A DNA stretch of 64,000 nt from Betaproteobacteria bacterium (GCA_027490755.1 JAIXXL010000037.1:4352-68351); one strand, 5' to 3'. Shown: positions 51,201 through 58,590, counted from the first letter of the stretch. The notes: a model not told the origin generated them from the letters alone. A program made the numbers and translations.

Positions 51201-54092
51201 GGACACAATTTTTTCACGCTCACTACCAGCGTCGATGGTGTGTCGGGCTCGGCAGGTAACGACACCATCAACGGCGTGGTCGCTGCCTCGGGAACGTTTA
51301 CGATCGGCGATGACATCATGGGCAACGCCGGTACCGACACGTTGAACCTGACCGCACTCGATCATGAGACCGACAGCGTCTTTGCAACGCTCAATGGCGT
51401 TGAGAACGTCAATGTTCGCCAGCTGGGCACGGCAGCAAATGCCTTGGTGATCAATGCTGTCAACTGGTCAGGCGTTGCGTCGCTGTCGAATGCCAGCTCG
51501 CTTTCAGCAACGACCTTGACGGTGACCGGTGCTGAAGTCGGCACCAACATTCGTCTTGAGGGAAACACCGACATCAACGTCGCATTCCGCAACAGCACGA
51601 CGGCGGGCCCGGTGGGCGTCACGCTGCTGAATGCAGGTAGCTCGGATGGCGCGACCACGCTGGCATCGGCCACCGCCAACGGCACTGCAAACCTCGATCT
51701 GGACCAGGCAGACGCAGGCCTGATCTCGGGCGTGAACGTAGCTCTGCAGGGCACGAACCTCGCGCGTCTCGAGGCTGGAAGCAACGTCACGACGTATACG
51801 ATCACTGGCACCGGTAACGCCATCCTCGTAACCGACGACACCATCACCAGCTTCAATGCTGCTGCTGCGCAGGGGAACCTCGATGTGACGTTCTCGGGTG
51901 CTTCGGAACTCACCGTGATGGGTGGTGCAGGCAACGACACTTTCCGCCTCGGCAGCACGCTGAGCAACAGCGACTCGGTCAACGGCGGTGCTGGCACCGA
52001 TACCGTTGCTGTAACGATCAGCGGCTTCAACCGCAACCTGAACACGTCGCTCGTTGAAAATGCAACGGTGGCTTTCACCGAAGCAGCCGGTGGCACCCTG
52101 AATGCATCCGCCTCGACTGTATCGAACTTCACGCTGGCGGCCGGCACGGCAGGTAACGTCGCCTCGCTGGAGGCGGTTGCCAACGGCACGACAATCACCC
52201 TGAATGACGATGACATCGGCAACGTGACGCTCGACTACGCGTCGGGTGCCGCCTCGACGACCCTGAACCTCGGCTCGGTATCGGGCACCGTGGGTGTCGG
52301 TACGCTGGCCATCACCGACGTCGCTAACGTGACCATCAATGCCGTGGGCGTATCGGGTACGGTTGGCGGCTCCATCGGTACCGCGTCGTTTGATTCCGAC
52401 CTGAAGTCGCTGACAATTGCTACCTCCGGCGGTGAAGCCGACCTGGCCATCGGTACCGATAACGGCGACATGGCTCTCGGTGGCGCAACCTCGCTGACCA
52501 TTACGTCGAACGGTTCGGCCGGAATCGCATTCACCAACGTCGATCTGGCCGGCACGGCACTGGCTGCAGTCAGCGTCAATGCCCGCGGAACCAATGCTGC
52601 CGGCATCACGGTGGGCGACGTGAGCGGCGCCGCGATCTCGACAGTCAACCTGTCCGGCACATCGGGCGCTGACGTCACCGTAGGCACCGTGGACTTGGGT
52701 GACAGCGCATCTGCAGCTGCTCGTTCGATCACCATCGCCGTCACGCAAGGTCAAAGTTCGGATGTCACCGTCGGCAACATTACGGTCAGCGGTCAAGGTA
52801 CCCTGAATGTCAACCTGACCCAGAACGGTACGGCCGTTGCCGACATCGGCACGATCACGCTGGTGAAGACGGGCACAGCCGATGCTGTGGCACAAAACCT
52901 GACTTTCGGTGCGGTTGCGGTCGCAGCAAGCGGTGAAGTCGCCATCAATGCCATCGCAGTTGGTTCGGGCACCGGCGCACAGCTGACCTTCGGTAACATC
53001 TCCGTCGGCCAAGATGGCGGCTACAGTGCCGGCAACATCACGGTGAGCGCTGGCCTGATTGATGTTGATGTCTCCTCGCGCAACGTGACGGTTGGCTCGT
53101 CTGCGACGGCCGTGTTTGGCAACATCGTTGAAAACAGCGGTGGCGCGATTGGCAGCGTTTCGGTGACGCTGGGGTCTGATGCCACGGCCACGTTCGGCAC
53201 GGTGACGGCATCTGCAATCAGCACTCACTCGATCATTGCCGCCACGGGCGCAAGCGCGAATTTCGGCAACATGACGGCTGAGCAAACCGTTGGCGCAATC
53301 GAGATCAGTGGTGTCGATGGCGCAGACGTGCAGTTTGGTTCGATCGGTGCGTCTGCGGTCGGTGCGATTGCTGTGTCTGGCGCGCTGGACGTTACGATCG
53401 GAACGATTACCGCAACGACACTTGGCGAGGTCAACGCGACGAATCTCGGTGCTTCGGGTTCGTTCACGATTGATCTGTCAGGCGTCACAAACGCTGTTGA
53501 AGTGAAGCTGGGTGCTGCTGCCAACACCGTGATTTCGGGTCTTGGTAACGACGTCATTACTCTGCGTGGAAACGGTACTGCTGCGGCTGGCAACGATGTC
53601 ATCCGCTACACTGCGACGGGACAAGGCACCGACAACATCATCAACTTTGTTGGCGGTAACGCTGCGTCGGGCGGGGATCAGATTGAGCTGTCTACGGGCA
53701 TTTCCACAGAAACCCTGTTCAACGTCGATGGTGAGGCGATTGCAAATACCGATGCTGCGGATTTGTCTGTTGCCATGACGGCGACCGGCGATACGCTCGT
53801 CGCGACCGACAACGTCATCGTGATTGCCACTGCCATGAGCACGACTGCGGGTATGCTGGACTTCCTTGATGGCGTCACAATGACGACTGCAGCTCAAGGA
53901 TCGGCAACGTATGTGGTTGCTTGGACTGACGGAACCGATACCTACGTTTCGCTGGTCGATGCAATCGGTGCTGGCTCCGCAGGTGCGACCACACTTGCCT
54001 CCGGCGGACACACCTTGTCGACCACGACACTGGCTGTCCTGCAGGGCGTCACCCCGGGCTCTCTCGTTGCAGCCAACTTCGACTTCGTCTAA
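51201..54092 (+). pseudogene. 5'-truncated RsaA-like S-layer paralogue (promoterless, anchor-less cassette; GTG at 51240 is the only in-frame start)
   Basis: Collinear with 55249-58590 from 'FFTLTTSVDGVSGSAGNDTING' (in frame from 51210; TAG at 51198-51200) to the shared tail '...PGSLVAANFDFV'. About 140 N-terminal codons present in the paralogue are absent. Confidence 0.7.
52141..52473 (+). repeat. near-identical 333-bp tract, arm 1 (inverted partner 56904-57236)
   Basis: By-eye alignment to the reverse complement of 56904-57236 shows about six mismatches. The flanking homologous sequence is clearly more diverged. Confidence 0.85.
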
Positions 54093-54136
54093 CTGACGAA
54101 CCGAAACCGGGGCGCAGGCCCCGGGCAGCCTTACAG

Positions 54137-58200: not shown

Positions 58201-58590
58201 GGCATCAAAGGCTGTCGCCGCCTTCGTGTCGTCGATGTTCGCGTCATTGACGTCGACGGCCTTCTTGCCCAGCTTCGTGCCGCCGAAGGTCGACGTCTTG
58301 CCGTCGAAGGCTGCGTTCAGCGCGCCGTCGAGGAAGCGCACCGACACGGCAGTCGCGCCGTTGGCCAGCTGGAAGACGACGGTCTGTTCGCCGTTGGTCA
58401 GGGTGATGGTACGGCCCGAGGCGCGCACGGTGTACTCGGAGGCCAGGCCTTCGATGTTCAGCACGTCGGCGTTGGTGAGGCGACCGGCGATGGTCACGCG
58501 GGTAGCGTCCGCGCCGATGACGTAGGTGTCGGCGGCGTTCGCTGTGTCACGGAAGGTCTTGCGACCCGAAGTGGCAGTAAAAGTCGGCAT
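55249..58590 (-). CDS. RsaA-like S-layer / surface-array protein, T1SS-secreted
   Basis: 1113 aa with AGGAG RBS. No signal peptide. '...GGTFTLTTSVDSPTATSGNDTITGLIGVSGTFNVGDYIDGGAGTDTLSLNM...VENINLR' parallels Caulobacter RsaA '...[19 protein letters not shown]...GGAGTDVLNW...IETMNV'. Long T/A/G/V/S/N-rich body. Tail is '...YLVVWTDGSDTYVSL...PGALVAANFDFV'. Confidence 0.8.
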   Translation of the reverse strand: MPTFTATSGRKTFRDTANAADTYVIGADATRVTIAGRLTNADVLNIEGLASEYTVRASGRTITLTNGEQTVVFQLANGATAVSVRFLDGALNAAFDGKTSTFGGTKLGKKAVDVNDANIDDTKAATAFDAGSGSGTTTTGGTFTLTTSVDSPTATSGNDTITGLIGVSGTFNVGDYIDGGAGTDTLSLNMMSGGQAPFVTLRNVENINLRLLEAGPGSALALNAQDWSGVTTLSFDNSLDETAIRVSGLSTTPTISVKNEVDVNLDYVGLTSGTDAVTVALTSAGSGGGTAESLASAGVADIDVDLDNAGLIDTMSVTLATGTNYATLEAGADLRTLNIGGAGNAYLSTDDTITALNASTASGNLDITLSGVSDVTVTGGAGNDTIRLGTTLSNNDSVNGGAGTDTVTVSVAGFNRNLNTTNVESATVTFTEAAGGTLNASASTTTAYTLAAGTAGNVAALEAVANGTTITLNDDDIGNVTLDYASGAASTTLNLGSVSGTVGVGTLAITDVANVTINAVGVSGTVGGSIGTASFDSDLKSLTIATSGGEADLAIGTDNGDMDVGGATSLTVTSNGSAGITFNNVDLAGSTLASVTINARGTDAADITVGDVSGSAITSIVLNATSGADVTVGTVDLGNNSTAGAAQNITISITQGANSDVTVGAITVTSQGTTTINVASNGTGGDLDVAAIVLDRAQNVTADSAPLNLAFGAVSVGASATYAINSIDAQNAGTGAQITFGAVTVGENADWSAGPISATATVNVDVSSVTLTVGSGASADLGAITTTAGEVGAVSLTLLGSDASAEFGAVAASAIGAYSIVAGSGAGADFGNIAAFSGGNASQGRVGAIAIAGVDGADVTFGTINASAVGAISVSGALNVTIGTITTTTLGEVNATGLGASGAFTIDLSGVSNSIEIKLGAGANTITSGDGNDVITLLGGRTAASGNDKIRFVSANGGVDNIINFIGGATASGGDQIELDVSEFATGIFAGDGSAIAAASDAVFSTGSGAAFTFDDNVILLTTAYASLTAMVTDLQADGTLASALADAASANYLVVWTDGSDTYVSLANVEGGSTGANTTLTLASASAVAITTLAQISGVSPGALVAANFDFV
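56904..57236 (-). repeat. near-identical 333-bp tract, arm 2 (inverted partner 52141-52473)
   Basis: See arm 1. Confidence 0.85.

Follow-up and report, generated by a model that had tools for sequence, protein, structure and literature searches.

Why should a freshwater bacterium keep, beside a complete surface-layer (S-layer) gene, a second copy that has an intact reading frame and no start? The question is raised by a 64-kb stretch of a betaproteobacterial genome (GCA_027490755.1; JAIXXL010000037.1:4352-68351), which we call the window and in which all positions are counted from the first letter. Two convergent genes related to that for RsaA of Caulobacter crescentus lie there, and a gene for a tyrosine integrase adjoins the shorter one. 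A sequence-only reading of the window had likened the pair to the cassettes of the Campylobacter fetus sap locus. We favor, with somewhat better than even confidence, the view that a site-specific recombinase varies the S-layer by switching between two cassettes. What points to it is an 11-bp core common to both genes and exchange at this core in related loci.

A complete S-layer gene and a start-less copy

The long gene (55249-58590, minus strand) is an intact open reading frame (ORF) for an RsaA-like product of 1113 aa. It was said to have a unique N terminus, and the ORF listing and BLASTP agree that it does. Its body (55249-58161, minus strand), assigned by ORF, BLASTP, and family profile, corresponds to the RsaA lattice domain plus a C-terminal secretion region. 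In front of the body is an N-terminal domain of 143 aa (58162-58590, minus strand; this includes a G/S/T linker), which is unique to the expression site and is the presumed anchor. The leader (58591-58842, minus strand) has the Shine-Dalgarno (SD) sequence AGGAG (58597-58601) with a spacing of 6 nt to the ATG, and a sigma-70-like match at 58842-58814 that is a consensus match only. It adjoins host DNA of 72 to 77% GC. At the other end, the gene has an intrinsic terminator (55178-55206, minus strand).

The short copy (51216-54092, plus strand) is a body cassette of 958 codons, with a frame open from 51201, an annotated beginning at GTG 51240, and no start codon or ribosome binding site. With the frame opened at 51210, BLASTP found 602/982 identities (61%) between the two proteins. 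They are collinear from residue 143 of the long one (FTLTTSVD) through the common C terminus, VAANFDFV, and hence to the last residue, as had been noticed from the sequence. The abrupt start of homology after an in-frame TAG and AT-rich nonhomologous DNA was also correctly seen: homology starts at 51212 (TTTC ACGCTCACTAC), the frame is closed by a TAG at 51198-51200, and the AT-rich DNA is the 175-bp divergent intergenic region of the integrase gene. No ATG, GTG, or TTG precedes GTG 51240, and we found no SD sequence upstream of the short copy. GTG 51240 itself falls within a conserved junction motif, and starting there removes TLTTSVD. The N-terminal domain and ribosome binding site are therefore missing, as proposed. 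The further claim that the promoter is missing cannot be demonstrated: a weak sigma-70-like match (51154-51183, plus strand) is no better than chance, and such a scan cannot decide whether the short copy is transcribed.

The two genes were also said to carry inverted copies of one terminator, and they do. The silent cassette ends in an intrinsic terminator at 54135-54163 (plus strand) that matches the one at 55206-55178 (minus strand), both with 12-bp stems. The 3′ ends and terminators together form a 128-nt inverted repeat (54045-54172 and 55169-55296) with 86% complementarity.

Variants from other strains suggest that the short copy is maintained. In low-depth contigs of other studies, 12/13 differences in the silent body are synonymous and the remaining one is V to I, which excludes simple decay; in the long body, 9/9 are synonymous. 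Judging from these substitutions, the silent copy is under purifying selection. The proposed arrangement of one expressed gene plus one silent, anchorless cassette is borne out, with a cassette that appears to be kept functional. Both bodies were found together in two other studies (a groundwater run and another freshwater run; X14 and X15). This weakens a further idea that we considered, an asymmetric spread of the two bodies among strains.

The DNA identity of the copies is mosaic. It is about 55 to 65% overall, and it is 272/274 (99.3%) in an inverted tract at 52165-52438 (plus strand) versus 56939-57212. Therefore, recent gene conversion between the copies is indicated. Independent Logan assemblies of four source-study runs span both junctions of the window without differences, that is, the joints of integrase, noncoding region, and short copy and of long copy, N-terminal domain, and host DNA. 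The same assemblies merge the 274-nt tract into one double-depth contig that is broken on either side, so short-read graphs leave the orientation of 52409-56968 unfixed.

An 11-bp core at the domain boundary and an integrase beside it

The core, ACGCTCACTAC, occurs just twice in the 64 kb, even with one mismatch allowed. One copy is at the head of the silent cassette (11-mer at 51216-51226, plus strand), where homology to the long gene starts, and the other is in the expressed gene (58151-58161, minus strand), inverted relative to the first. Both are preceded by TTTC, making a 15-nt TTTCACGCTCACTAC at 51212-51226 (plus strand) and 58151-58165 (minus strand). The core encodes T-L-T-T of the motif that opens the RsaA-like lattice domain. 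The third codon positions of its ACG CTC ACT are invariant in 18/19 distinct family sequences, and later third positions vary freely. These frozen synonymous sites indicate a constraint at the DNA level. The 140 nt or so on the 3′ side of the core are well conserved between bodies.

RsaA is secreted by a type I secretion system (T1SS). Its N-terminal domain (NTD; residues 1-248) binds the lipopolysaccharide O antigen, and its C-terminal domain (CTD; residues 249-1026) forms the lattice. When a profile of 34 family members was compared with solved structures, RsaA 249-1026 (5N97) was the sole match (E 8.6e-7), with significant alignment limited to residues 1-103 of the 5N97_A construct (about the first 100 body residues). 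The junction motif gstFtLTTsvDavsGtagNDT aligns at the very start of the RsaA CTD (residue 249). Therefore, the core lies at the equivalent of the RsaA NTD/CTD, or anchor/lattice, boundary. The C terminus, ...GALVAANFDFV, is conserved, and there is one sub-threshold match to an RTX repeat. The locus resembles that of RsaA in lattice-domain homology, adjacent T1SS and sugar/KDO-type (3-deoxy-D-manno-octulosonic acid) genes, size, and T/A/G/V-rich composition. It differs in its N-terminal domain, which has 143 aa and no sequence relation to the RsaA NTD. By analogy, we infer that the product forms an S-layer anchored through this domain, whose presumed anchor role follows its position relative to RsaA.

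The N-terminal domain had no match in Pfam or the PDB. Its family is rare (32 representative clusters), is almost always N terminal on T1SS-type bodies, and has a G/S/T linker and then an (F/Y)TLT motif after the domain. Elsewhere, family bodies bear unrelated N-terminal domains, DUF4214 among them, which means that head and body are evolutionarily separable modules. A 227-nt unitig from a wastewater metagenome run (X5) spans the N-terminal domain and ends exactly at the last base of the core (58151). This could be a branch, with several bodies behind one head, or the mere result of about 3x coverage.

We sought the long gene in RNA runs, and none of them holds it. A separate observation comes from 13 JGI contigs of 2.8 to 5.6 kb (L021-L024, L026-L029, L032, L033, L036, L040, and L041; such handles denote loci carrying relatives of the window genes). 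They barely exceed one family gene, and they carry the long form wherever the 5′ end is present, with a leader of a few tens to about 240 nt; two are cut at the 5′ side. Their appearance is that of transcripts assembled from a strongly expressed gene, in samples of unverified type.

The integrase gene (49865-51040, minus strand) is divergent from the silent cassette and encodes a P4-type tyrosine integrase of 391 aa by Pfam (Phage_integrase, 9e-30; Arm-DNA-bind_3, 5.6e-12) and PHROG (phrog_1, 3.7e-62). The arm-DNA-binding domain places it in the P4/island type. Its ORF is intact, and the catalytic motifs TGARKRE, HDLRHS, and LGHADIRTTSRYAH are visible in the translation. Between this gene and the cassette lies a region of 175 bp (51041-51215). 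Two of the five window matches to GTCGTTGA are in it, 31 nt apart (51119-51126 and 51150-51157), and GTCGTT(A/G)A is repeated in the equivalent intergenic regions of L002, L007, and L038. From their placement, these repeats are candidate arm-type sites or an operator.

Exchange at the core in related loci

Had cassettes been exchanged, mosaic S-layer alleles would be expected among related strains, and we found them in L034, L038, L039, and L049, four loci of a single NCBI metagenome project. Between L034 and L039, identity is 99.8% for 9.1 kb, through the promoter and N-terminal domain to the junction, beyond which the bodies are only about 55% identical. L038 has a silent body beside the gene for a 415-aa integrase, and its upstream DNA is not related to that of L039. 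Starting at the first core base, L038 (silent) and L039 (expressed) are 99.9% identical over 4857 nt, which hold the body, a gene for a 329-aa protein, and an FkbM methyltransferase gene. One head thus occurs with two bodies, and one body occurs both silent and expressed. A three-way alignment limits the crossover to the 11-bp core. In another pair, L038 and L049, the integrase heads are 99.4% identical. Their final 425 nt, which run to 2 nt past the core, have no mismatch, and the bodies part directly beyond, 13 nt after the start of the core.

The partners in these exchanges share just 11 to 13 exact bases at the junction, which makes homologous recombination an unlikely cause. It also means that the junctions are not graph-assembly chimeras. 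We considered chimeric assembly as the source of the reassorted heads and bodies and rejected it, because 11 to 13 shared bases are too few for k of at least 21, and because three independent assemblies contain the L049 junction and two contain that of L007.

Start-less forms recur in the family. Besides the window, they are found in L002, L004, L007, L034C, L035, L038, L039C, L043, and L049 and in the distant L009 and L054. Each has a stop codon 0 to 26 codons upstream of the core and neither an SD sequence nor an ATG; L002/L038/L049 and L004 have merely a TTG or GTG, without an SD sequence, 2 to 4 codons upstream of the core. Every long form with a readable start has AGGAG or AAGGA and an ATG. 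The frame was always intact in the start-less bodies examined, which have 951 to 1002 codons in close members and 689 in the distant L009.

In the window, L007/8, L038, L049-51, L034C, L039C, L035, L009, and L054, the core has an integrase gene at most about 600 nt upstream; none of the long forms examined has one on that side. Modules of an integrase and a start-less body occur at nine further distinct loci, including those of Limnohabitans radicicola and Polaromonas isolates. Where compared, the cassette-linked integrases are 41 to 56% identical. In the reverse test, we started from a 58%-identical integrase of the isolate L. radicicola (GCA_014837235.1; contig JACYFT010000001.1, about 800 to 817 kb) and found a divergent start-less body of 956 codons that begins with CTTTC ACACTCACTAC. 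A distant version of the module is present in another isolate, Polaromonas sp. OV174 (L009). It was among the matches listed in a search of genome contigs with the full-length alignment, all of which were distant relatives.

Two loci have a layout suggestive of mobility. Direct cores enclose 7.2 kb in L034 (9035 and 16216) and 10.1 kb in L039 (9023 and 19105). The expressed body, accessory genes, and genes for an integrase and an XRE regulator are common to both segments; that of L039 also has a prim-pol primase gene (phrog_13901, 1e-34) and a TerS-like gene, and that of L034 a toxin-like gene. Direct cores with an integrase at one end and mobility genes are thus found in L034 and L039 and not in the window. 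By their layout, these segments look like integrated mobile elements, each with its own body fused to the resident expression site and the former body displaced to a downstream position beside the integrase gene. A search of IMG/VR yielded no relatives of the family, and the lone match to the core pattern there was due to chance. As an aside, the gene set at 14366-18440 of L039 (primase, small-terminase-like protein, integrase, and XRE regulator) is reminiscent of phage satellites.

The closest relative that we found, L046, has the same N-domain type and flanks that are 83 to 91% identical to those of the window. It has the long gene alone, then the same spacer, and then a tetratricopeptide repeat (TPR) gene and T1SS cluster; the window DNA at 54413-55318 is 90.6% identical to the DNA downstream of its single S-layer gene. 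The window has 4.8 kb (49611-54413) that L046 lacks, and this stretch includes the integrase gene and, inverted, the silent body. L048 likewise has a single gene, and L047 has a matching host neighborhood (Crp/FecR/CHASE2) upstream of the expression site.

Some accessory genes accompany the bodies. Directly downstream of many of them is a gene for a conserved protein of 312 to 329 aa, with 29 to 40% identity among members (L004 13019-13957, L007 12941-13885, L038 8827-9816, and L043-L045). It had no Pfam or NCBIfam match and, for the one member scanned, no PHROG match, and it is absent from the window. It often precedes a GSCFA-family or methyltransferase gene. In L009, the genes on the 3′ side of the start-less body (12144-16841) encode a 1052-aa TPR/GT41/methyltransferase fusion, a TylF O-methyltransferase, and a rhamnosyl O-methyltransferase, which suggests that glycan modification covaries with the body.

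Proposed mechanism and alternatives

In the mechanism that we favor, the expression site would supply the promoter, SD sequence, ATG, and 143-aa N-terminal domain, ending in the core, and the adjacent integrase would recombine cores. Because the window cores are inverted, the predicted reaction is an inversion of about 6.9 kb (51227-58150). This would put the silent body in frame behind the N-terminal domain and park the current body beside the integrase gene. L007, which likewise has an inverted silent body, integrase gene, TPR gene, and T1SS cluster, is compatible with this scheme. With direct cores, as in L034 and L039, whole elements might integrate and excise, each bringing a promoterless body and displacing the resident one. 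RecA-type gene conversion between coresident bodies would add mosaicism. The likely benefit is that the exposed lattice, as a phage receptor or grazing target, would change with anchor, secretion, and regulation held constant.

A broader proposal, about which we are evenly divided, is that freshwater Betaproteobacteria (Limnohabitans, Polaromonas, and relatives) host a family of small integrative, partly satellite-like elements whose attachment (att) site is the S-layer core and whose cargo is a promoterless body. Integration, excision, or inversion at the core would give the cell a new S-layer, with displaced bodies archived in silent form. The cargo would often include methyltransferase or unassigned accessory genes, and the process would amount to an in-frame "S-layer conversion," analogous to O-antigen conversion by phages and probably under pressure from phages or grazers.

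Several observations weigh against a recombinase-driven cassette system. Alternative joints are absent from the Logan contigs of the four runs, which as contigs drop rare variants. The 4.8-kb module of the window is not bounded by cores, so simple core-to-core integration did not place it there. L038 and L039 part again 4857 nt past the core, at a shared block downstream of the terminator; therefore, a single inversion does not relate them. L004/5/6 and L043/44 are start-less with no adjacent integrase gene and no long gene within 7 kb, and in place of the integrase gene they have an ORF of 149 to 162 aa with no assignment. The integrase family is large and generic (>3,000 matches at E of 1e-30 or below). 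Integrases of Halomonadaceae, about 62% identical, are closer than some cassette-linked ones, and the short contig of a close homologue (L053; 68% identical) has no body. The anchor role of the N-terminal domain is assigned from position only, and the AlphaFold2 model of the domain (six-sequence alignment; predicted all-beta) is poor, with a predicted local distance difference test score of 45. Finally, the comparative evidence comes from other organisms, namely, low-GC relatives with integrases that are 41 to 56% identical to that of the window.

We regard as improbable an explanation in which RecA-dependent recombination or conversion between the inverted paralogues is the main mechanism, as in sap or Neisseria pilE/pilS, and the integrase gene is an unrelated neighbor. 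It would account for the 274-bp tract, 99.3% identical amid about 60%, and it could draw on the 3′ ends and terminators (86% identical) and on the conserved 140 nt or so that follow the core. Between the window and L046, the 3′ flanks have stayed 90% identical although the bodies differ, and the block downstream of the terminator that is common to L034, L038, and L039 could be right-hand homology. However, such recombination would need two-sided homology and would leave crossovers scattered across the 140-nt conserved stretch, whereas two independent breakpoints fall at the 11- to 13-bp core with no homology beyond it on one side. Breakpoints at the core without flanking homology indicate site-specific recombination. 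The integrase-core linkage in nine further loci, with its positive reverse search, and the frozen synonymous sites of the core are also unexplained by RecA. Therefore, the sap comparison made in the sequence-only reading holds for the logic of one expressed gene and a silent cassette, but RecA-type recombination between conserved ends is probably not the main mechanism here.

It is similarly doubtful that the short copy is a by-product that no longer switches, either a body that a single element insertion pushed aside, in the way that e14 and phage 21 leave icd′, or the cargo of a now-degenerate element. The order of integrase, noncoding region, core, and body is the geometry of an attR end, and the direct stacks in L034 and L039 resemble integrated elements. 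Moreover, L046 lacks the module, the module in the window retains no other element genes, and contig data show no alternative junctions. However, selection on the silent body is as strict as on the expressed one (12/13 versus 9/9 synonymous), every start-less body examined has an intact frame, and the integrase ORF is intact. The recent conversion tract ties the two copies together, strains from two other studies keep the pair, and the inverted layout beside a T1SS cluster recurs in L007. A related idea, that an island had interrupted an S-layer gene and left the cut-off 5′ part at its far end, was rejected, since there is no third core or fragment of the N-terminal domain in the window.

T1SS substrates require a C-terminal signal only. 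Even so, it is very unlikely that the short copy is expressed independently, from GTG 51240 or another start, as the secreted, nonanchored variant once suggested: its intact ORF, its own terminator, the weak sigma-70-like match at 51154-51183, and the fact that in L004 and L043 the start-less form is the sole family member within 7 to 10 kb would suit this, but it has no SD sequence, GTG 51240 drops TLTTSVD, no start is conserved among start-less forms (with stops 0 to 26 codons before the core), the promoter match is at chance level, and the near-gene-length JGI contigs with a readable 5′ end, whose transcript origin is unverified, are all long forms.

Comparison with known systems

A close S-layer precedent for a recombinational switch of the kind that we favor is Lactobacillus acidophilus slpA/slpB, in which active and silent S-layer genes are swapped by a chromosomal inversion of about 6 kb (PMC3666127). 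As there, two oppositely oriented S-layer genes lie a few kilobases apart, one expression site is present, and an inversion would bring the silent gene to the promoter. The differences are that Lactobacillus is Gram positive, with proteins that are Sec secreted and anchored at the C terminus, and that exchange is at the 5′ end of whole genes and not at an internal domain boundary. We know of no adjacent P4-type integrase or mobile cassette described for slpA/slpB.

In C. fetus sap, as reportedly found by Dworkin and Blaser in 1996-97, one promoter serves several complete or partial cassettes, and DNA inversion selects the expressed one. The sap cassettes share a conserved 5′ anchor-coding region, the promoter segment inverts, and the process is largely RecA dependent. 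In contrast, only the expression site here encodes the anchor, which is missing from the silent cassettes; exchange is at an 11-bp core, and a tyrosine integrase is linked. For RsaA itself, we know of a single gene, with neither a silent copy nor a recombinase.

In Mycoplasma pulmonis vsa/HvsR, the R64 shufflon/Rci, and hsdS shufflons with CreX-type enzymes, silent genes lack a promoter and the 5′ coding end. In vsa and the shufflons, a short site within the coding region allows in-frame joining by a nearby tyrosine recombinase. The window shares with the vsa/Rci/slpA-slpB class its inverted short sites at the expressed and silent junctions, with a recombinase gene 175 nt from the core. However, vsa and the shufflons involve other recombinase families and targets, and they are fixed chromosomal or plasmid arrays rather than cassettes of integrative elements; the recombinase here has an arm-binding domain typical of island and phage integrases.

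In that respect, the locus is closer to e14 and phage 21 in icd and to P4-type islands in tRNA genes, where the element supplies a replacement 3′ gene end. Shared features are an integrase gene beside att, a displaced 3′ portion downstream, and, in L034 and L039, direct core repeats. The e14-type cases restore an equivalent gene end, whereas the incoming body here takes the place of about 87% of the gene and is only about 50 to 60% identical, so the product changes. The sites in the window are also inverted, unlike those of e14-type elements. With integrons, the locus shares an integrase gene divergent from one or more promoterless cassettes and a single upstream expression signal. Integron cassettes are whole genes with attC, whereas here the fusion is in frame inside a coding sequence, and each cassette may bring its own integrase. 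The window integrase scores far below the cutoffs of integron-integrase NCBIfam models (56 versus 265 bits and 28 versus 435 bits), and we rejected membership in that class; no attC-like structure came to light, although no search was aimed at one.

A full-text literature search turned up no account of such a system among T1SS S-layers. What sets the locus apart is that it combines an RsaA-like T1SS S-layer with an in-frame core between anchor and lattice domains, an island-type integrase, and cassettes that can be archived as well as mobile. Many environmental bacteria have an S-layer as their outermost coat, and it is commonly a receptor for phages. To our knowledge, almost nothing has been described about how S-layers of the Gram-negative, T1SS-type (RsaA-like) kind diversify. 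There seems to be a modular rule: anchor, secretion, and promoter stay constant, and an island-type integrase might exchange lattice domains at a fixed 11-bp site, with cassettes either kept in silent form or passed from strain to strain by small elements. If true, this would explain why such genes are hypervariable and why freshwater metagenome assemblies break around them, and the known mechanisms of recombinase-driven variation would gain one in which cassettes are joined in frame at the level of domains. Displayed lattice domains could then be swapped with a defined site and enzyme. Two cultured organisms, L. radicicola and Polaromonas sp. OV174, carry the module, making the proposal testable.

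Genomic surroundings of the locus

The contig was identified as NCBI JAIYDF010000006.1 (GCA_027487615.1). From about 28 to 58.75 kb, the window has 56 to 62% GC in a genome of 70 to 76% GC, and the S-layer genes are at the right edge of this region. The right boundary is sharp, at about 58.75 kb, immediately upstream of the S-layer promoter. The region holds T1SS, sugar modification, and S-layer genes, and this gene set and order recur in low-GC relatives. Pfam (OEP, HlyD_3, ABC_membrane, and ABC_tran) identifies a TolC-like protein (33929-35314, plus strand), an HlyD protein (39416-40804, minus strand), and two ABC exporters (40801-42528 and 42521-44257, both minus strand). A T1SS cluster also flanks family members in L002, L004, L007, L046, L048, and L049. 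KdsA-like and KpsF-like genes, methyltransferase genes, and a gene for a TPR protein are in the same region of the window.

The spacer between the convergent S-layer genes (54190-54998) has two small ORFs on the plus strand, one of 169 aa with no assignment and one of 94 aa with a sub-threshold, HGGxSTG-like sequence. Its GC content, 63 to 70%, is higher than that of its surroundings.

Other genes of the window encode large repetitive or secreted-type proteins. Four products (21024-22322, 22918-24588, and 24820-26607, all minus strand, and 31024-33513, plus strand) are of the RTX/T1SS type, with similar C termini (...YDADGNG..A....A.L......DIVLV), and are probably further substrates of a type I exporter. 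A protein of 1109 aa (17568-20897, minus strand) consists almost entirely of ALTTAQ repeats (PF20080, 3e-110) and has an Asp/Gly-rich, calcium-binding-like tail at its C terminus. Another, of 565 aa (29286-30983, plus strand), is very acidic and Trp rich, has no Pfam match, and contains about 20 degenerate IDWGxVxW(T/S)E(F/L)xW repeats.

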